DNA of 64,000 nucleotides, taken from positions 3,410,001 through 3,474,000 of the forward strand of contig CM030336.1 in NCBI GenBank assembly GCA_017654855.1, in the 5' to 3' direction. Shown piece by piece: positions 22,501 to 55,343 of this stretch (positions are counted from its first letter, which is position 1; every line of letters starts with the position of its first letter). The stretch comes from Podospora anserina (lineage: Eukaryota). Position numbers and translations under genes: made by a program. Below the pieces are notes generated by a model. The model saw only the letters and a program-made list of their open reading frames with translations. It was not told where the DNA came from and did no database searches.

Positions 22501-23851
22501 TCCTGGGACTCCCCCCGGCGTATGCAGGGCTACGAACATGGCGTGTGCACACGGGGAACTAACCCAGGTCTCCCGGGGGCTTGGTCACACGACGGCCCAA
22601 TGTCCTCTTTTGGTGGCCCTCTCACGTCTCTGCTACCTCTGTCACCTCTGGAGCAAATTCCGAACCCCCTGACAGACACTACAGCATACAGCACGGCACT
22701 AGACACCTCTTGGGCTCCATTTCCCGCTCGAGGTCCTTGCTTCTGTTCAGATTTGCTGATCCGATTTTCTCTCTTGTTCACGAGCACCGAGCACCAGGCG
22801 GCCCCTGCGTGTCATATTTAAGTGGGTGAATGGTTGATGGAGGGTGTGTGCACAAGAACGAACCCACTGCCCTGGCTCGCCCCCCGGGCTGACGGATTGC
22901 TTGGGCTGAGCCGGGACAGGGGTTGCAGAGAGGCGCAACGAGAAAATTGAACAAAATGGGCTCAGGGACCCAGGTCATCAAATTCGCTGATCTGCTCTGC
23001 TTGCCATCCGTCCCTCGCCCGGCAAGTCTTAAATACCCCGGGGCGGAGCCAATTCCGTCATGAGTGTGTCTCTCGTCTGCTATCAAGAAGAACTCGCCAA
23101 CTTTCATCCCGAGCCGTGCCGGTGCTGTCGTTGTTGCTGCTGTCGGCCATGGCGATGAACCACGACCATGACCAGCATCGCATCAACCCTCCTCACCACC
23201 TGTGCTCCGAATCAACACGTCCCGGCCCCGTACCCGTCCAGCAACACATCCAACTCCTCCAGCACCACCGCCACCACCACTGCAGCTGGAACCAACCCAA
23301 CACGCACACGCTTCCATAAAAGACTTTAATCCGAGAAAAGCTGCCACACCACACCTGAGACAACCGAATTGCTTTTTTCCCTCACTGCTCCCACTCACTG
23401 GCTTTGGGGTGTCCGGGGAAGCCCTCCACGTCATCCGCCGGGCCGGCCCCCTTCCCCCCCCCTCCCTTGGGTTGCTCCTCGGGAGCTGGATCAGGAACTT
23501 GAGACTCCTCGTATCTTCTTCATCGAAGCCGGTGAAAGAGCAATTGAAGCCGGCCACCTGGCAGCAATCACCTGCCTAGATAGCATAGAGCCTCTTTGTC
23601 CACCGACTCCCGATACCGTCAGCCGGCCTCTCTGTCTGCAGTATCCCCGAGTATAAGATCCCGGCCACTTGGCACCTTTGCACACTCACCCCCTCCCGCA
23701 ACAACAACCACCAGCCTACCATTTCATGATCCCCTACTCTGGTCATATCGAGGAAAAGACCTCGCTCCGTTGGCGACAACACTTTCGATACACCAGCAAC
23801 CCTTACGCGGCTTCTCGGTCCGATATCTCACCCAACAACACCGACGCAGCC

Positions 23852-42249: not shown

Positions 42250-42252
<3 letters not shown>

Positions 42253-42283
<31 letters not shown>
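42253..42283. repeat. (GA)n dinucleotide microsatellite
   Basis: Uninterrupted gagaga run of ~30 bp. Confidence 0.95.
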
Positions 42284-42285
<2 letters not shown>

Positions 42286-43395
42286 GAGAGAAGCGGAAGA
42301 AACGATGTGACGGGAACATCGCGTGGAGCAGGCCAATCCGCGCCATTCCGAACATGGTGAAGGCTGGCTTCTGTTCTCCACATGCAATTAATCCATCCTC
42401 GCGGGGGAATTTTTATGCAGCTCCGCACCACCGCACTGTGCTCCGTGTCCCTGGCGATCACAGATAAAGACGCATGTTCCCAAGCCAGTCTTGACCCCTC
42501 TGGGCAAGTCCAGCCTGCCGAGGCTGCTAGCGACGCAGGGGCACAGATGTGAAGGACTGTCAGTGGGACGCTGCCACGACGGAAGGACGGCAGTGCTTTT
42601 TCTCGACTGCTGAGAAGTTTTCTCGAGCTGCAGAAGGAGCGAAGAAAAGAGGGGTTATCGAACTGGCAGTGGCTCGGGGGTTTCAACATTGGGATGGCGG
42701 GTGCCAGACGGTTGACATTTCCCCCCGCACTTGACCCCCCAAGCACCCCCCCCAAGCCACTCAGCAACAATAAGCCCGGCCACCCGACCTCGTACCTTAA
42801 CGAATGTCACCAAAAACGCCATTCACCCGGTTTCGCCGTTCCAATGCCTCGACGTAACATGTCAGAAAGTTAATGCAGTCAATCGACATATTCGTTCCAC
42901 GATTTCGTCTTTCAATCATTGACTGTTCCTCAGCAGCTGTCGCGTGTCGGTCGTCAAATGACGAAATGCCCAAGCTTCTCTGGGCAGCCCTCCTGGCCCC
43001 CTGCATCCCACGTGTCACGCTACCAGTCTTGGGCCACAACGCTCGGGACCGCGAATCCACAGCGGCCATCACCAATGAAAGGCCCAGTAAGGCCTCCAGC
43101 CGAAATGATATCGAACTCGACGGCGCCGCTCTTGGACATCAATGGTTCCCAACATCCGTTGTGGCAGCGGGATGGATCATAACAGCTGCCGTTATCATCG
43201 TTCAAGTGTGGTACGGCGCGGTAGGTTAAAGCCACAGAACGACGCATTTATCATGAGACCAGAATTCGTTTTTACTAGATGATCCTCACAGCAATACCGT
43301 CCGCAGATTTGTCGCCGCGGACTGGAGCGTGTGGAAGATCCACCACTGGGTTGCCCTCACACCGGAATCTACTCATCTGGCCATCTTCTGATAAA

Positions 43396-44116
43396 CTACT
43401 GCCTTGGAATCCCGATTTCCCAGGGCAGGTCACCTGGGTGAGCCCGCCCCATGAACGCTAATAACAGAGAAATAGTGCCGCTATATAAAAACATGAGCCC
43501 CAAGGCGGATGTAACAGCAGCGCCAACTTCTTGAAAACCCCATCTGCCGGATGGTGGCGGGGAAAGTACCAGACCGATTCCTGTTACCAACGCTATCATG
43601 AACATCAGCATGAACACGGCGCCCAATGTTAGGGCATCTTTCCACGTCATGGAAGAAGAAGGTCGATGCTGATCTGGTATGTTGCCGTCTTGCAATTGCT
43701 TGTACCACTTGTTAAGCTTTTTGTGGATATCTTTGCATCGGAGACGTCGCCGGGTATCCTTGGGGAGCTTGCCGTTGCTCTGGACTGGCGGCTCAACAAC
43801 CAACATGTCCTTTTCGATCATGTTCAAAAGGTTGTGGACGTAGTTGGTGCAGCTGGGGTGGCCGTGTAAGCCGCGTATGAACTATATCTGTGTCTTTAGT
43901 GTTGGTTTCCAAAGTCAAAGCGGAGTGCTGGACTTGTGGTGGCTAACCTGGGTTACGGACGGTTTGACTTGGAAAGGCAGCTGAGAAGACGATGGGCGGC
44001 TCCCTCGGGCGCGTCGTGTCGAGTTATAGTACGCAGCTTGATAGTCGCCGTCGTGTTTCCGATTCTTTTCGAACTCGCGGAGCAAGCGGATTCCGCCCAT
44101 ATACCAGGTGATGAAC
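43396..44116 (-). pseudogene. 5'-truncated protein kinase (end of C-lobe) with two C-terminal TM helices; intron 43882-43947
   Basis: FITWYMGG..LLREFEKNR..VKPSVTQ|FIRGLHGHPSCTNYVHNLLNMIEKDMLVVEP..RLRCKDIHKKL, resembling fungal kinase subdomains IX-XI, then two hydrophobic helices; no upstream kinase part. Confidence 0.72.
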
Positions 44117-47100
44117 ATCTGGGCTCTTAGTTGCATTGTACTCGAATTCTTAATATGGTTGCTTTATGGGTGGCAGGAACTGGCCGAGTTTCATCAACAA
44201 ATTCGGGACAAACAAAGACTTCCATCGCCCTTCTATGAGGAAGACACTGTGGAGCTTGGAAAAAGGAAGGCCAAGGTTCACGGAAGAGTAGTGGAGTGGA
44301 TGGGCAAACTCAGTCGCCATCCGCTTTGCCAGGAAGGCACTGCCATGAGGGATATGCTGGAACTCGTGAGGACTCGGTTGTTGGTCGTTCGACTACCAGT
44401 TAATATCGGTCGACTTGGAGATGGCCCTACCCCCGACTCTGTCCGTTTGTCCCGTCGAAACACAATCGAAAACATGCGCGAGGCCAGAGAAACTTAGCAA
44501 CAGGCAGTCTCGCCACCCATACCAGCAGCACCCACTTTTGCTGACGAGCCAACATCACACGACGAAACTCGCGAAGCTGTGGTAGTTCCTGACATTGTTG
44601 TTGACACTGCTGATAATAAAGAAAACTCTGCTCAGACTCCTGTCAAGCAAGGAGACCCCGAGCAGCATTTGTGCCGTGCAAAAGCTTTCGAGGTGACCGA
44701 AAAGCTTCAAGTCATTCTAGATCACAAGGATGAGAGCTACTGGCTTCCCTCCCATTCCTCTCCGCAGTCAATCGCTGTTCAGCCTCCCGACCCCCTCAGC
44801 CAGGGCAATGAAAGAGAAGCATCAGATGCATACGAGACTTTTTCAAGCATTGGATCATCCACCATTGACTCTACTGCAACTAGGGCTTTCGATTCAGGTA
44901 CGTCTACTCATGTAGACTCCGGTCAATCAACCAGTAGTCCAACCAGCAAAAAGGGAAGGGACGCCAAGCTTCTTGCACCACAAGTGCCACAACGTAAGTC
45001 TTGCTGAGAGGCCATGATAATGAAAGAGCCATCTAACAAGCATTCAATGAGATGGCTGATTATGTGTGATCAATCTGCATATTATGAAACACGCAACCCT
45101 TTCTGATACAGTCATTACATAGTTCCAAGTTGTGAGTAAACCTCGGTTTCTTCATGTCCTAGTTCATCAAAGGTTGGCACTGACAGGCCGAAATTAGTAC
45201 GTGAGTTCGTTGTAATGCCTCTTCAAAAAACCTTTTACTGGTTGTTTTATCGTTCTAGACTGATCATAGACAATGGTGAATGCACATGAAGGCTGTGAGC
45301 CCTCTACCTCAGTTATAAGCCCAAGGCGTTTCGTGCTAACTCGTGGCAGCATGTAAGTTGATCTATCGTCTGTTCGTTGATATTACTCGAGACAATGCTA
45401 ATTGCTTTATTTGACACCACCTTCAGCCAGTAAGCAGTCTTTGGTCTGGCCTCTAATGAGAACATGGTATTAATCTAAGATTATTAGGAGGCAAGTCAGT
45501 TTCTCAGAATGGCACGGTCCAGCCTTTCTGACAGTGTGCAGCTTGGTGACCGTTGGACCCTTCACATCGACAACCAGTTTCCCCTCAACGTTGCCTTGAC
45601 CATTCAGGGTCACAACCTTCCTCATCCTGGAGGAAGACTACAGCTTGATCGTCTCTGTGTCAGCTGCCAGTCAAGACAGTTATGGAAGGTTGGGTTCAGC
45701 TTCACTGTGAGTGTGAAATCACTCGAGGCGCAGGCAGCTCGCAAAGCATGTGACATGTGCTGCCTCCTTTGGAAAGCTTGCTCGAAGGCAGGAGGCACAA
45801 ACTTCCAGACGTCAACTTTCACAAGGGTTGGGTCAGGCCTAACTCTGAACTCGGGTAATGTTCATGTCTTATCAATTTGTCAAGAACCAAGTGAGTATTC
45901 CGCCACCACTGCAAAAAGATCGCACTTATCTTCCCCTCCCACCTTTTGCGACGTTGTTAACATCAAGCTGACCATATCAGTTGTTCACAGAGCCGTTGAC
46001 TACTTCAGTGATATCCAGATTGGGTACCCTTGTCTTCAAAAGGCAGGAAGCGATGTTCACTTCAAGATCATGAATCAGTGGCTAGACCTGTGTGATTCAA
46101 CACATTATCACATGGGTGATGCAGCGTCAACAAAGCCTGACCTTCCCACAAGACTGATTGATGTTGGCCACCCTGACAATGAGTCTGTTAGGCTACGGGA
46201 GACACAGGCGGGAGATTATATCCGATACATTGCTCTTTCTCATCCTTGGGGAGATCTTCCACACTTCTGCACGTACCGCAGCAATCTGAAGGCCCACATG
46301 GAAAGCATAAAGGTCAGTGATCTTCCGGCAACCTTCCGAGATGCCGTCGTGTCTACACGCGCCCTCGGGCTTCAGTATTTATGGATCGATCCCATCTGCA
46401 TAATACAAGGACCAGACGGAGACTTTATCTCTGAAGCCAAGCGGATGGAACAAGTTTTCAGTTCGGCATACTGTGCTCTTGCCGCCAGCTGCACCATTGG
46501 CCAGTCGGACGGATTCCTGAAGCCACGACGCCCGAGAGACTACGTACAGCTCCCATCGCAAGAAAACAACAGACCTCCGCTGTATCTCTGTGACCAGATC
46601 GACGACTTCAACAGCCATGTGCTGCAAGAACCTCCCAGCACCCGCGGTTGGGTCCTCCAAGAACATGCCCTTGCCCGCCGCACAATTTTCTTCACGGAGC
46701 ACCAGACATACTTTGAATGTGGGAAGGGTGTGCATTGCGAGACCATGATACGCATGTCAAAGTAAGATACAATATCCATCCCTTGTTTCTTCTTCTTTTT
46801 TTTTTGGCATATCCACAGAGCAACAGGCTGGCTGATCAGACTTCAAGCTCCCTCGCCGACCTCATAGGCGACACCAACTTCCTCCAGCTCATCATGAGAG
46901 CCTCCAAAGGCGAGCGTATCCTCCGCTATCAAGACTTTTACAGAAAGTAGTCCCGCCTCAATTTTACGCGGCCTTCAACCGCCCCATCGCCCTCGACGGT
47001 CTGCAGAGCAGGCTGCTCAAGGCTTTCGGGACCAGAGGCGGCTTCGGCATATTCGACGAGGGAGACCTTCACGGCCATCTCCGGCGCAGCTTACTCTGGC

Positions 47101-47684
47101 ACCGTGCCGCGGATGAGCCGACCATGCAGAGGATTGACTTCCCTGCCAGCCGTCTGGTGGTTCCAGAGACGGCCGTTATGCTCCCCCCAACGTGGTCCTG
47201 GATAGCGTACACAGGGGCCATTGATTATTTTGATTTGGAGTTTGGAGGGGTCGAGTGGGTGGACGGTGTTAGTTCGCCATGGACCAGTGTCAGCGATAAA
47301 GCTCTTGCTGCTCGTGGTCCCCTGAGACTGCGCGGGAAGGCGAGGAGGTTCAGGATTGACGATGGTATACTTTCAGAGAAGAAGGCAGTGGTCGTTCTTG
47401 ACATCCCAGACGAGCCAAAGCAGCAGGAACAACGCGTGATGGTTTTGGGGAGAGATCAACTGGATGTGGGGGGCTCTAGACTGTTGGCATCTGGTGGTAG
47501 CGATCTTGGGTCGCGTAGGAATTATGTCCTTTTCATTGGCAAAAAATCATTGGCAGACAGGGGAGTCAAGGGTGACCATGCTCAGGGATCTAGGTGGATC
47601 AGATTGGGGCTGGGTATCTGCCGGAAAGATGTATCTCCCAGGATTGGGTGTTGGTTCATACTTACTAAGGGTAATGTCGTCTAG
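44115..47684 (+). pseudogene. 5'-truncated protein kinase-HET domain gene with premature stops and frameshifts
   Basis: Starts at subdomain IX (N)IWAL(S)CIVLEFLIWLLYG; HET motifs LPTRLIDVG, YIALSHPWG, LPATFRDAV, YLWIDPICIIQ, MEQVFSSAY, RGWVLQEHALARR; PPTWSW; stops at 44495 and 46948, frameshift near 46975. Confidence 0.9.
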
Positions 47685-48103
47685 GTGGTGTGCAAATGAG
47701 ATTCTTCCAACATCAAATTTCTATAAGGTCACACGACATGAACCCAACATTTCGGTATGCCTAGTACCTAAGGTACCTGATATCTTCAAGGCGGCCTCCC
47801 ACCCCAAATGCAATTGTCGCAGTGTGTTGGCACCACACACTGTCTGGAAAGCACTAAGTGACTGTTTTGTTCGTGACTGGAGCACACTCGACGGCTAGTC
47901 TCGTGGTTCAGTAGGTAAGATCGGGTTGCATAAATAGGGAACACCCGCTGAACAATTTGTGTGGCCGAGAATGCCCCGCACTTATCGCTTTTCACTTCAT
48001 TCTTCTCCCGCCCAGTCCTGTCAGAACACAGACAACCTTTTGCATCACTTTCCAGACAGTCTGATCGATCTACACAATCACCACACCCCAGCTATTCTCA
48101 ACG

Positions 48104-49601: not shown

Positions 49602-50577
49602 TCAAGTCTCGCAAGTCTGCTCTCCACAGTCAGGGTCGGCGTCATCAATGCCCTCACGGGGGCCCTGGAACTCTTTCTGGCAGATCAGAGACCAATACAC
49701 CTCCTATCATCAACGTTAGTGCCTGACTAACAAGCTTCTCGACTAAGAGATTGAAACTTACCGCAGCATAATACGCGTAACTGTCAGCATTGACCCGAGC
49801 CAAGTCTTTCGGCAACCGATCATAAACGGCAACCGGGCCATAGCCAGGTTCACCGTCAGGATTGTCAACAATAGATCCAAAGGAAGACTGGATCATGAGG
49901 TCATAGTGGAGGTACTCATGGAGGAGTGTCATTCCGAGGGTGTTAAAATGCTGTAATGAGTTAAGTCAATAAAAGCTGATCATGATGAACACCAAGAGGG
50001 AGACACTTACAAAGCTGACATTATCCGCAATATCCCCCCCATCCTCAGCACAAGCAGCATAGAAGTCCCTCGCATCCTCATCCCCACGGTCTTTCCCCTC
50101 AAGATCACCAATAGCCTTCTTGTTGAAAGCACGAGGGCAAACCACGATAAAAGGCTGCTCAGTATTGTAGTCACCCGAGTACGCCAGTCCACGATCACCG
50201 CAGGCATTGTCAAGATCGGTAGTTTGCACGAGGAAGTTCCCCAGCATGTCATGACCTTCGCCGTCATTGTTAAGGTCTCTGAAGATTCGGGTAATTTCCT
50301 CACGGTCTGCCGGGTCAAAGTAGTGGGGATAGATTGTCTCGTCGGTTTCAATGAAGGACAAGACGGCAGAGGTCAACTCGATGGCGTCTTTGAAGGCGGT
50401 TTCGACTTTGTTGAGACGGTTGGGGACGGGCTCTTCGTCTTCGGGGAAGTCTTCTCCTGTGTTGGGCTCAGCCCGCTTGGAGAGGGCTCTGATGCCGGGC
50501 TTGGGGGTGGAGGGTAGGACGCTGGCGTGCGCCAGGGACAGGCTTGAAGCCAGAAAGAGGGTGCGGATGAGGTGCAT
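49602..50577 (-). CDS. Secreted zinc metallopeptidase, M35/deuterolysin-like (aspzincin-type), 3 exons
   Basis: Signal peptide MHLIRTLFLASSLSLAHA, KR processing site, IVVCP, TLLHEYLH (HExxH), NADSYAYYA; GT-AG introns at ~49952-50010 and ~49703-49761. Confidence 0.85.
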
Positions 50578-51351
50578 GGTTTTTGGTCAGTGCTGAAGAG
50601 CTGGATGAGGGGAGGATGTGAAGGACTGTGTGAATGCATCGTCTGCTTTGACTGGCGGTGGAGAGAAGTTATATGCACTTCTTCTCACCGACATTATCGA
50701 TATAGAATACCCGTCTCTCGGCCGGACATTGACAAGGCTGATGATCAGACAGAGACTCCTCTTGTCTGGTTCTGTATGACATGCTGAAACAGGCTTCGGC
50801 CATGGCGGATGTCAGCTTGCTGGGTGAACCTCATGGTTCTTGCTGACTGCGCCGCGTCTCGTGGCATGAGTTGAAGTGGCATTTGTTGGTGGCCATTGTG
50901 GTTGCTCATCTTCGTATTGGATGTCTCTGTCCAGGAGGAAGCTGTGGCGACGTCATGAAGTGAGCTTTCTGAAGCTTTGGATAACTGGTCCGGTGAGATT
51001 ACTGGGATGGAAACCTGTATTCGATTCCACAAAATGCGGGGTCTACCTAGTGGGTGCATAAACCGTGCCACGCAAACCGTTTCTTTCTTTTTTCTCCTTC
51101 CTTTTACGCTGTGCCGATGACCCGAGTATTTGAGTCTCACCGACGGCATTTTCTTTTGATCAGCTGAGTATTCTGAGCAACTCAACACTTTCAGCTTTCA
51201 CATCTATCCTTCTCAGCCCAGATCAAACAACTAGCGGCTTTTGACCTATCTTACCTAAACCGACTTACTGCGTCACAATCATCAACCTTCATCGTCTTCA
51301 ACTCTTTAACCCAACTGCAACACCACCCAACGACACAACACACCAGCAACC

Positions 51352-52719: not shown

Positions 52720-55343
52720 CAATGTTGCAGCCAAATCATCGACCTGAAGCCCCATTCCGTTTTAAATTCCTTCAAATTCGCGATAGTTGCCGTCGTCTCC
52801 TCGAGGAGACAAGGTCTTCCACCGCAGGTCCAGTCTTATCGATTGAATTTGCATATACTGACGTACATTAGGAACCCATCTCGAATCAACCCCGTCAACA
52901 TGCTGTCTAACCCTTCGTGCAAGATTTGCGGGAAAATTTTGGAGGTAGTCTCGTTTTACCTGAAAAGCCAACACGAAAGAGATGAGTGGTTCATACCTAA
53001 CCACAGATAGTAAGGAGATACCCATCTGCACTTTAAGGGGCAGGATGATAGTTCTTGCGAATACTCTTGGCCTTTTAATTTCAGTAGAATTCAGTTGCTG
53101 ACTACCATCCCATGATAGTATAAAATCAGTGGATTTGGGCACCTATGGCCATCTAGTTTCGGATTCGGGGTGCGAAGCTCACTAGGCTTTCTTCAACTCC
53201 GAGTATATAACGCGTCAGAGGCTTGGGCACTCGGCAACGGTGTCCTTGAATGCATTCGCCCGTCCAGCCTGGAAACGGATGAATTTCCTAGCCCTCGAGT
53301 TTGACGACACAAAAGAAAATCGGGGATCAACAGAGGCAAGTCTGGCATGCTTATGAAAAGGCCGACTAGACGGCGTGACAAGTCTCGATCGCAAAGATAT
53401 CAACCTCGACCAGGTGAACTCTTGGAAGCATGGCTGCGAAAGAGCCCACGGTGGAAAGTGCTTGATCAAGGGTGACCCTCCCCAGTCCATGGCGTGGCTT
53501 ATTGACGCAAAGAAGCAATGCCTGGTACCAGCAAAGGCCGAACTACAGTATGTTGCGTTGAGCTATGTGTGGGGACAGGCAGCGATGCTCAGGACAGAGC
53601 GCGCCAATTTGTTGGCTCACCAAAACGACCGTGTATTTGATCGATTAAGAGTAATGATGCCTGCGACTATCAACGATGCTATTGGTCTGGTCCCTTTGAT
53701 AGGCGAGAGATATATATGGGTCGCTTTGCATCGTTCATGAAGAAGGCTCAAAACATACGCGAATTCGGGATATGGCCAAGATATATGAGAACACTCGACT
53801 TACTATTGTAGCTGGCGATGGCCTAGATGCCGACCATGGCTTGCGCGGTATTCCCAACGTTTCTCAGCCTCGACAGTTGCACCCCGAACTAGAACTCAGC
53901 GACACCATCTCCGTGCGTGCCCCACAAAATCTTGCACTGGAAGAAACCACATGGGCACGCCGTGGTTGGACGTGGCAGGAACTCCAGTTTTCACAGCGAC
54001 GGTTAACATTTGTTGACGGGTCTGTTCGGTGGAGGTGTGCAGAATCCTTTTTCTGTGAGGACGATGTCTTCCCTGCGCGTGATTACAGGAAGACAACCGA
54101 GTCGATAGGAGACCTGAATGAACCCAATCTAGATAACGTCTGCCGGAGTAGGGTGGGTGTGGGAGCAGCAAGTCTGACCGACCTGGGAAAGGACATTTCG
54201 ACATTTAATCAACGCTCATTGACATACGACGAAGACGCTTTGCTTGCTTTCGAGGGAACCCTAGCGATCTATATTGAACATCAGTTTCCACGCGGCTTTC
54301 TTCATGGCATTCCTGTATCATTGTTGGACTCTGCGCTACTGAGGCACACTCAGACAACCGTACCGTTCGCTGAAGTACGGCAAGCATCCAGTCACTCCCG
54401 GGAGTGTCCACCTCGTTGGGGTTGGTCTGGCTGGAAGGGTAAAATTTTGCAGTGTTGGGAAGGGGGTCTCCTCGGGCAGGACAACGTTCGACCTCCACAA
54501 CAAACCATATCCATCCTCACATGGAAACTACGTTGCTCCGTCACTTCTACCCCTGTCAAAATTCCCTTTCAAAATGACTAGTACAGTTAGAAAACAGAAT
54601 ACATGGGTAACATTAGCAACCTCCCGCAAGGTTGGAGGGTTGCTCAATATCGAAAGTTCCTTGTCCGACCAAATCAAATAGAGCTTAGTGCAGAGGCCAA
54701 CCTACTACGCCGACTCTTTTTCCAAAAGAGCAACGCCTATGTCCGAAATGAAGCTTCCTATCAGAACTTAGATGGGGCGAGTGTCGAGCAGATTGGTTAT
54801 ATCCCTGGAGTTGGCTTACCGACCACTTTTCTTTGTCATCCCGTCCCCTATGGAAGACACCTTGAATCGTCTGTAGCACAAATGCCGCAGCCTATAGGGA
54901 GATACCTTTGTGCCTTGACACAACAGGGGCGTCTTTGGGGTGACGAGGAGCGCATATTGATGCCAGAAGAGCTTGGGAGCACAGAAGAGCCATTCGACCT
55001 ATATTAAGTGTTTCTCGAGCTCCCCCTTGTACTTCGAAACTCTGAAGACCAAGAAGTGGACGAAATTCGACCGCATAGCAAAGAGGATAACGCATTGCTG
55101 AACTCCTGGAGGAAGGAGAAGAAGGACGGGGATGAGACCATAGGCTACCCGTGTGACAATGTGGCGATCTCACGTGGTTACGATGGTGATTCTCCGTTGA
55201 TTGACGATAAGGACATCTACACCTTCTATAACGTTCTCTGGGTGGAGTGGATCGATGGGGTGGCATATCGACGGGGTGTGGGCCACGTGATCAGAACAGC
55301 ATGGGAAAGTATGGAGAAGGATGCGGAGCTTATTCTTGGGTAG
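52720..55343 (+). pseudogene. HET-domain protein pseudogene (5' boundary approximate)
   Basis: WLIDAKKQCL, YVALSYVWG, PATINDAI, RYIWV then frameshift, MAKIYENTRLTIVA, WARRGWTWQE, RSLTYDEDALLAFEG, NVLWVEW...AYRRGVG; stops at 54579 and 55005. Confidence 0.9.

Follow-up and report, generated by a model that had tools for sequence, protein, structure and literature searches.

The 3-bp mini-exons in the NACHT-ANK (nank) genes of the truffle Tuber melanosporum were reportedly described by Iotti et al. 2012 (Fungal Biol 116:261). Here, we analyze a row of similar codon-sized exons, referred to as the array, between the kinase and HET parts of a decayed kinase-HET gene of Podospora anserina. It lies in a 64,000-nucleotide stretch of contig CM030336.1, which was analyzed at its whole length and is referred to as the window. 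We consider it quite probable that the array is the decayed local version of an ancient structural feature in the kinase-HET genes of fungi. This reading builds on what we observed: the array itself, its splicing in the organism of the window, its conservation and its coding content.

In the truffle, the nank genes contain dozens of 3-bp mini-exons, as excerpts of several papers describe (PMC4986451, PMC3689799, PMC10197012, PMC9815663, PMC13449251). Within the excerpts returned by our literature search, these mini-exons were the only precedent. Full-text searches on the kinase-HET family gave no paper linking HET or kinase-HET genes with micro-exons. Going by the excerpts, the array and the nank genes share rows of one-codon exons, short spliceosomal introns, a place in families of non-self recognition or cell death, and alternative use.

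The array differs from the truffle case in family, position, exon number, residue conservation and breadth of distribution. Its host is a kinase-HET gene without NACHT or ANK, and it occupies an inter-domain linker. Arrays of this kind hold five to seven exons that encode a conserved motif, whereas the excerpts give dozens in a diversified recognition part of the nank genes. The layout is spread over many divergent fungal lineages, in contrast to the truffle feature, which the excerpt of a citing paper calls lineage-specific. The array links kinase-HET genes to a precedent that, as described in those excerpts, likewise belongs to a fungal non-self-recognition family.

Runs of short symmetric exons, whose skipping keeps the frame, are also found in the schistosome MEG genes. 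There, exons of 6–36 nt make up most of the coding sequence of variable secreted proteins. Unlike these, the 3-nt exons of the array encode one conserved intracellular motif. For filamentous fungi, the abstract of a 2024 paper states that functional microexons were previously undescribed (PMC11121469). Plant microexons of ≤15 nt are conserved, often misannotated and lost by retro-processing (PMC8831610). Like the exons of the array, they are tiny coding exons that are long kept in conserved portions of proteins and missed by annotation; in some lineages, they disappeared when the introns on either side were lost. They differ from the array in being single or paired, of any phase and 1–15 nt in length (PMC8831610).

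The window has a G + C content of 52.7% and looks fungal. A loose scan for intron-like units, each defined as a donor, a CTRAY-like branch and a YAG acceptor within 45–95 nt, gave 44 units on the plus strand and 46 on the minus strand over the full window. With alternatives counted, eleven of these units fall into the 410 nt from 45132 to 45541 on the plus strand. Between 45123 and 45541 (+), intron-like units follow one another consecutively, with GTRAGY or GCAAGT donors, CTRAY-like branches and YAG acceptors. Six of them abut (45132–45197, 45201–45269, 45276–45349, 45353–45426, 45430–45487 and 45491–45541, all +), forming the sole chain of more than one unit on either strand of the window. 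Donors, branch-like motifs and acceptors stand where an earlier note, made from this DNA alone, had located them.

Of 200 versions of the window simulated with a third-order Markov model, 177 had no chain longer than one unit and 23 reached two units; none went beyond two. About 20 distinct donors per strand are expected in the simulated windows, versus 27–30 observed. The chain of single-codon exons is genuine, and chance clustering is excluded. Tandem Repeats Finder detected no tandem repeat beneath the array between 44000 and 46500. The introns of the window resemble each other at chance level (1 of 45 pairs at p = 0.005). A cluster of three signatures on the minus strand at about 23313–23404 is attributed to chance in G-rich DNA.

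To describe splicing in the window, we compared contigs over 43800–48100 from the runs X1, X3 and X9, which carry an RNA label by guess, and from the DNA-like run X15, which contains all sampled words. Contigs of this kind indicate the presence of a form, while levels, ends and absent forms are outside their reach. The X15 contig covers the whole stretch in one piece with zero joints. Those of X1 and X3 display GT..AG joints at two ordinary introns of the HET part (45891–45980, joint 45890>45981; 46762–46847, joint 46761>46848) and also within the chain. X1 record 5 consists of 44859–44993, 12 letters equal to 45123–45131 plus 45198–45200, and 45292–45352; it then skips 45353–45426 and continues through 45427–45890. 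X3 record 10 consists of 45105–45131 and 9 letters equal to TAC, CAT and CCA, followed by 45488–45782. In X3 record 9, 45132–45197 is skipped and the downstream part is unspliced.

In these RNA-like contigs, introns 1, 2, 3, 5 and 6 are each removed at least once, and several array introns are removed independently of their neighbors. The spliced contigs contain the 9-nt exon as well as Y, H and P among the 3-nt exons. The A exon behaves as an alternative exon in these contigs of a dead copy, with its acceptor used in X1 and the exon skipped in X3. A scan for the signature 'acceptor, 3 nt, donor' gives five matches in the array of the window, which are Y, A, H, P and E. The corrected array reads FQV-Y-A-H-P-E-LGDRW, each hyphen marking an intron (Table 1).

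The exon sizes of 9, 3, 3, 3, 3 and 3 nt are all multiples of 3 and in frame with the HET open reading frame (ORF), in agreement with the earlier note. That note misplaced one exon: its ACAATG (45270–45275) is never used in the contigs, and GCT at 45292–45294 takes its place, which brings the array into agreement with the homologues. The GC-AG unit that it had proposed at 45491–45541 has the sequence signals of an intron, but its splicing was not seen in X1 or X3. At the position of this intron 7, homologues have an acceptor at the same place, directly before L/F-x-x-x-W.

The note also has a '..DY' exon with a GTGTGA donor, corresponding to 45052–45063, which is not used in the contigs seen; X1 removes 44994–45122 whole. 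We considered the same stretch, MADY (ATG-GCT-GAT-TAT, 45052–45063), as an ancestral start or as the D-Y of the motif. Both options were dropped: X1 splices across the stretch, and the nearest relatives, with the layout x-I-D-Y-x-H-P-K, are without such an exon. MADY together with a 47-nt intron at 44994–45040 (acceptor AAG, 4 nt past CTAAC) would be in frame with the upstream linker ORF, and hidden Markov model scores are highest for spliced forms that include it. Possibly, the stretch was left behind by dead exons or by a local duplication.

The contigs of X1, X3 and X9 have single-base differences from the window at 44138, 44593, 44812, 46883, 47204 and other positions. At 44138, the change G>A occurs in all three runs alike. 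These single-base differences are likely differences between strains. The contig variants remove none of the stops and frameshifts where the contigs cover them.

Table 1. Exons and introns of the array and flanking parts of the kinase-HET locus, in positions of the window.
Feature	Position	Strand	Details
Kinase C-lobe and linker ORF, decayed	44045..44993	+	One frame (ORFs 44045-44497, 44498-45007); TAG at 44495-44497; phase-1 end at 44993
Intron 1	44994..45122	+	129 nt, GTAAGT..TAG; in X1, 44993 is followed directly by the letters of 45123-45131
9-nt exon F Q V	45123..45131	+	X1 and X3 contigs
Intron 2	45132..45197	+	66 nt, GTGAGT..TAG; X3 record 9 has the joint 45131>45198; X1 record 5 and X3 record 10 imply it
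3-nt exon TAC (Y)	45198..45200	+	Letters between joints of X1 and X3
Intron 3	45201..45291	+	91 nt, GTGAGT..AAG; X1 passes from TAC to 45292
3-nt exon GCT (A)	45292..45294	+	Acceptor at 45290-45291 used in X1; skipped in X3
Intron 4	45295..45349	+	55 nt, GTGAGC..CAG; acceptor used in X3 (TAC to CAT); retained in X1
3-nt exon CAT (H)	45350..45352	+	X3 letters between joints; X1 exon end at 45352
Intron 5	45353..45426	+	74 nt, GTAAGT..CAG; joint 45352>45427 in X1, implied in X3
3-nt exon CCA (P)	45427..45429	+	X3 letters between joints
Intron 6	45430..45487	+	58 nt, GTAAGC..TAG; spliced out in X3 record 10 but kept in X1 record 5
3-nt exon GAG (E)	45488..45490	+	First letters past the X3 joint
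Intron 7	45491..45541	+	51 nt, GC-AG, GCAAGT..CAG; in frame, stop-free; retained in X1 and X3
HET N-region and Pfam HET domain, starting LGDRW	45542..46761	+	PF06985; intron 45891-45980; tblastn 45539-46759
C-terminal HET-family region	46848..47684	+	TAG 46948-46950; frameshifts at ~46975 and ~47590

On the basis of 94 family proteins, we built a motif profile of 38 residues around a conserved W. For 78 of these proteins, the position 4 or 5 residues before this W can be assigned to an L (or I, M, F). The consensus upstream of that L is R/Q-V-D-Y-A/G-H-P-E, followed by L-D-x-x-W. The residues of the window are the commonest ones at L-5 (Y, 37/78), L-3 (H, 12/78), L-2 (P, 24/78) and L-1 (E, 14/78), and A is the second commonest at L-4 (11/78). 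The H-P-E reading has a log-odds of +6.4 bits versus −1.4 bits for the unspliced reading. The micro-exons are coding exons of the ancestral gene, each carrying one conserved residue.

In an AlphaFold2 model of the relative P0010 (mean pLDDT 78.6), the confident fold begins at the W. Motif residues 1–14 and 17–22 have pLDDT values below 50 and are outside this fold. The model hints that the motif may be a linear motif in a flexible linker.

The host gene is recognized from its HET domain and from homology to the kinase C-lobe. The ORF at 45488–46765 matches PF06985 with an E value of 1.1e-25 over residues 247–392. Seven kinase-HET proteins used as tblastn queries match the kinase C-lobe and linker from 44105/44114 to 44410–44920 (E 4.7e-18 to 3.3e-26), aligning with residues ~357–658 of proteins of ~1290 aa; Pfam gave no significant kinase match on the remnant ORFs. 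About 400 N-terminal codons of the intact relatives are absent upstream, and the N-half of the kinase is missing. Among the best 120 relatives of 714–2035 aa, 118 carry a kinase domain (PF00069/PF07714) and a HET domain, mostly at 1100–1400 aa. The kinase-HET relatives come from Dothideomycetes, Sordariomycetes and Leotiomycetes, and relatives similar in length to the HET ORF of the window are HET proteins. The HET domain, the kinase C-lobe homology and these relatives support the idea of the earlier note that a kinase-HET gene is in decay here.

In the transcripts seen, the kinase-linker ORF is out of frame with the array: its phase-1 end at 44993 is spliced to the phase-0 position 45123 in X1, giving a +1 mismatch at the first junction, and the contigs lend no support to the '..DY' exon of the note, with which the frame would be regained. 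In the C-terminal region, the TAG at 46948–46950 sits at a conserved Y codon, and the tblastn frames change 1>3>2 while the RNA-like contigs are continuous. No continuous kinase-to-HET frame is present at the locus, which has two in-frame stops, two frameshifts and the phase mismatch at 44993/45123. The locus is a pseudogene of the kinase-HET family whose transcription and splicing persist. In the contigs seen, the HET frame has its first in-frame ATG at 45509–45511, inside the retained intron 7, and a truncated HET-only product of ~421 aa may be made.

In order to compare the array with homologous loci, we scanned metagenome contigs with an alignment of the HET N-part, which gave 80 loci out of 426 confirmed matches. 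The signature (acceptor, 3 nt, donor) was searched in the 800 nt upstream of the W codon, whose position could be established for 59 of the 80, referred to as the parsable set. The array counts rest on the plain signature scan and on base-by-base reading of several loci. The scan misplaced the W codon in L013 and L025, and L013 was scored by eye; L035–L038 are near-copies of one another. Within the parsable set, 24 loci have at least three signature matches, one has two, five have one (L013 included) and 29 have none. In a few of the matchless loci, one intron lies directly before the motif.

The arrays of the homologues spell the same motif in single codons. In L001, seven consecutive 3-nt exons (I-D-Y-A-H-P-K) precede LDNEW. 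The signature scan gives V-N-Y-A-H-P-K for L006, which reads N-Y-A-H-P-K before LDDEW base by base, and gives D-Y-A-H-P-N for L022, I-D-Y-S-H-P-K for L031 and I-D-Y-K-H-P-K for L050. Two further loci read Y-A-H-P-R before FDNNW (L028) and N-T-Y-R-H-L-P before FDEIW (L071). Shorter or partly fused forms are D-Y-GKP-H before LDQRW in L013 and Y-G-T before AVKDEW in L005. The number of 3-nt exons per array is thus five in the window and up to seven in homologues. A GC-AG intron with the donor GCAAGT occurs both in L001 (at ~2109) and in the window (at 45491), at different positions of the array.

At least 11 loci have an ORF of 152–652 codons that leads into the array from upstream in phase 0; two of these are limited by the contig end. 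The kinase part is found upstream in 20 of 26 array loci, and the other six have no more than 1087 nt of flank. These contigs indicate that the arrays sit in intact kinase-HET genes of other fungi. The earlier note proposed to test whether micro-exon number and phase are conserved in intact homologues, and they are. It also proposed to test whether the exon sequence varies among homologues; instead, the junction motif is conserved residue by residue.

The signature is concentrated at the junction, with a density of 3.26/kb upstream of the W versus 0.256/kb elsewhere on both strands. When the 24 array sources are taken together, acceptor and donor lie exactly 3 nt apart 27 times as often as elsewhere (126 matches, 6.86/kb versus 0.254/kb elsewhere). 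Other spacings from 0 to 12 nt reach 0 to 0.54/kb; those of 6 and 9 nt are raised about twofold, and the rest stay at background. The 98 introns between consecutive 3-nt exons have a median length of 68 nt (range 49–123). Their donors are mostly GTAAGT (40) and GTGAGT (26), and their acceptors are TAG in 48, CAG in 38 and AAG in 12. The lengths are even modulo 3 (29/32/37). Only one of the 98 is in frame and stop-free. As every TAG acceptor brings a stop with it, this count does not clearly depart from expectation, and no selection is read from it.

Introner-like elements are recognized by sequence similarity among their copies. They would explain many quick intron gains, but the array introns have no mutual similarity (within arrays, 3 of 185 pairs at p ≤ 0.01, about chance). 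Such dissimilar introns neither support nor exclude an old duplication. Recursive splicing at zero-length exons and fungal stwintrons (the subject of PMC6616335 and PMC5587772) resemble the array in that a long non-coding stretch is removed stepwise at packed splice sites. In the array, on the contrary, each step leaves 3 nt, no intron interrupts the signals of another, and a spacing of 0, with the acceptor abutting the donor (AG/GT), is not enriched (7 matches, 0.38/kb versus 0.24/kb background).

To place the arrays on a tree, we made a quick maximum-likelihood tree of 61 rows from a query-anchored alignment of 396 columns, leaving out 20 loci with less than 70% cover. The window groups with the array-bearing L001, L022 and L031 (SH-aLRT 92). 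The 22 array rows, counting L013 and L043, and the 28 non-array rows are intermingled throughout the tree. Their distribution takes a minimum of 8 changes, 4 of which are forced by starred branches; the shuffled mean is 16.4, and none of 500 shuffles is as low. Because the introns fall between the same codons in distant family members, we favor one old origin with repeated loss. The array layout thus seems to be old and to have been lost repeatedly, sometimes piecemeal as in L013 and L005. Arrays of 6–7 exons persist in loci that are 40–58% identical in protein.

Several points weigh against reading the array as the copy of an old family feature. The arrays of the homologues are inferred in metagenome contigs from splice motifs, conserved residues and ORF continuity. 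Among the parsable loci, 34 of 59 have at most one signature match, and many encode the motif contiguously. Transcript support is limited to the dead copy and to assembled contigs of runs whose RNA nature is guessed. In the X1 and X3 contigs, which speak to presence only, no fully spliced array form, no splicing of intron 7 and no use of the intron 4 donor (45295) was seen. The window is without the D of the motif, and its 9-nt exon takes the place of what are two exons, I and D, in the nearest relatives. Intron 1 holds another, unused D-Y (45058–45063) beside the donor-like GTGTGA. The tree is quick and without an outgroup, so that gain and loss are indistinguishable on it.

If the array is such a family feature, each motif residue would be a separate phase-0 exon of 3 nt in a large part of the kinase-HET family. 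Every array intron has its own donor, branch and acceptor and therefore should be removable alone. Removal would proceed one by one, as is usual for short fungal introns. The full kinase-linker-HET frame would arise only in mRNA from which all 6–9 introns have been removed, and retention of almost any of them would stop or shift the frame before the HET domain. With a frame that depends on all of these removals and is broken by nearly any intron left in, the losses at each splicing step would multiply. In intact genes, the array would then act as a throttle on HET output, selected or not. We regard such a splicing throttle on HET production as plausible from gene structure. The earlier note likewise raised the possibility that splicing gates a toxic HET effector. 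In the window, the array is now part of the leader of transcripts in which the one long HET frame begins at ATG 45509.

Whether the throttle has been selected is a different question. Many loci encode the motif contiguously. The protein can therefore do without the array, and there is no need to assume a selected role. We hold a selected role for the throttle as a tentative idea and lean somewhat against it. The strict regularity of 3 nt and phase 0 points either to selection for symmetry of the exons or to duplication of a codon-plus-intron unit. A bolder reading is that the motif itself was built codon by codon via tandem duplication of such a unit, in which case the intronless members of the family would be retro-processed descendants. 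This regularity is hard to obtain by random gain, so the array bears on the origin of introns.

A stronger form of the idea takes codon-sized arrays as a selected safety or sensing device of fungal cell-death genes, which we think doubtful. If it were true, the output of lethal full-length protein would vary steeply with how well the spliceosome works or with a regulated splicing factor. RNA with some introns left in would lead to kinase-only products, to degradation, or maybe to HET-only translation from an internal start (compare ATG 45509). Together with the truffle NACHT-ANK mini-exons, this would point to a general strategy of fungal immune-type genes.

The closest competitor, to which we give somewhat less than an even chance, is a neutral relic without any role. 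In this case, the array would stem from one local burst of intron gain or unit duplication and would be kept by slow intron loss. It shares the structural part with our explanation and differs only on whether the array has any effect that matters. The many members with a contiguous motif, at least 4–8 losses on the tree and the even intron lengths modulo 3 all agree with it. Partly eroded arrays, such as D-Y-GKP-H-L in L013 and Y-G-T-AVKDEW in L005, look as drift would leave them. However, 6–9 introns within ~24 coding nt, with all exons of 3 nt and in phase 0, are unlike random gain, and the survival of 6–7-exon arrays in such diverged loci also speaks against it.

It is quite unlikely that the array serves combinatorial diversification of the linker, in which exons that are multiples of 3 would be skipped in various combinations, as the earlier note had proposed. 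This follows the same logic as the schistosome MEG genes. The symmetry of all exons and the A exon, included in X1 and skipped in X3, are what such a use would give, and diversification has been proposed for the truffle mini-exons in some of the excerpts listed above. The encoded residues, however, are conserved, which makes this reading unlikely: the Y-x-H-P pattern is the same in arrays and in intronless relatives, and a skip could do no more than take residues out of a conserved motif. The exons number 5–7, not dozens. The alternative forms seen, one skip and some retained introns, come from the dead copy.

Very improbable is the view that the chain never coded and represents leader introns of a stand-alone HET gene starting at ATG 45509 (P0001 of the ORF caller, 418 aa). 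This ATG is the first in-frame one in both contig forms, behind in-frame stops at 45120–45122 and 44913–44915, and relatives of 390–680 aa that start near the W motif do exist. As to origin, the view is contradicted by the fit of the micro-exon residues to the family motif, by intact homologues with the array in phase with kinase ORFs, and by the kinase-HET fusions that make up 118 of the 120 best long relatives; it describes the present state of a dead copy, not how the array arose. Chance clustering of splice-like motifs or an assembly artefact has a negligible probability, since, common as single intron-like units are under the loose definition, simulated chains stay at two or fewer, contigs of independent runs agree with the DNA and its joints, and homologous loci bear arrays too.

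As the copy of an old family feature, the array matters for splicing mechanics, as five to seven one-codon exons in a row raise the question of how spliceosomes assemble on introns 3 nt apart. For the control of cell-death genes, it means stacked obligatory splicing steps directly before a cell-death domain. For annotation, it means that arrays of codon-sized exons defeat gene predictors. The proteins P0139 and P0154 (from Lasiosphaeria miniovina and L. ovina) are ~93% identical around the junction and differ by a gap of exactly seven residues before LDDKW, which are the residues that arrays encode. We infer that this gap is a gene model jumping over the array. Because the two proteins differ by just these seven residues, public kinase-HET gene models are probably often wrong at the junction. 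In P0126 and others, we notice junction peptides that resemble a translated intron.

On the minus strand of the window, a neighboring gene occupies 43396–43996, with an ORF at 43396–43881 and a weak DUF2207_C-like match. Its RNA-like contigs extend to 43996, abutting or overlapping the site expected for the missing N-half of the kinase. The kinase-HET gene may have been truncated by this neighbor or by a rearrangement. A second, more distant HET-family gene is located at 53399–54476 (+), where kinase-HET queries give tblastn E values of 1e-4 to 1e-11; no cluster of 3-nt-exon signatures was found near it. At ~42250–42310, the window has a short, GA/CT-rich simple stretch that translates as RERERE or SLSLSL. 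Finally, ORFs at 49654–50586 (−) contain a HEYLH motif resembling that of zinc metalloproteases and a start resembling a signal peptide.

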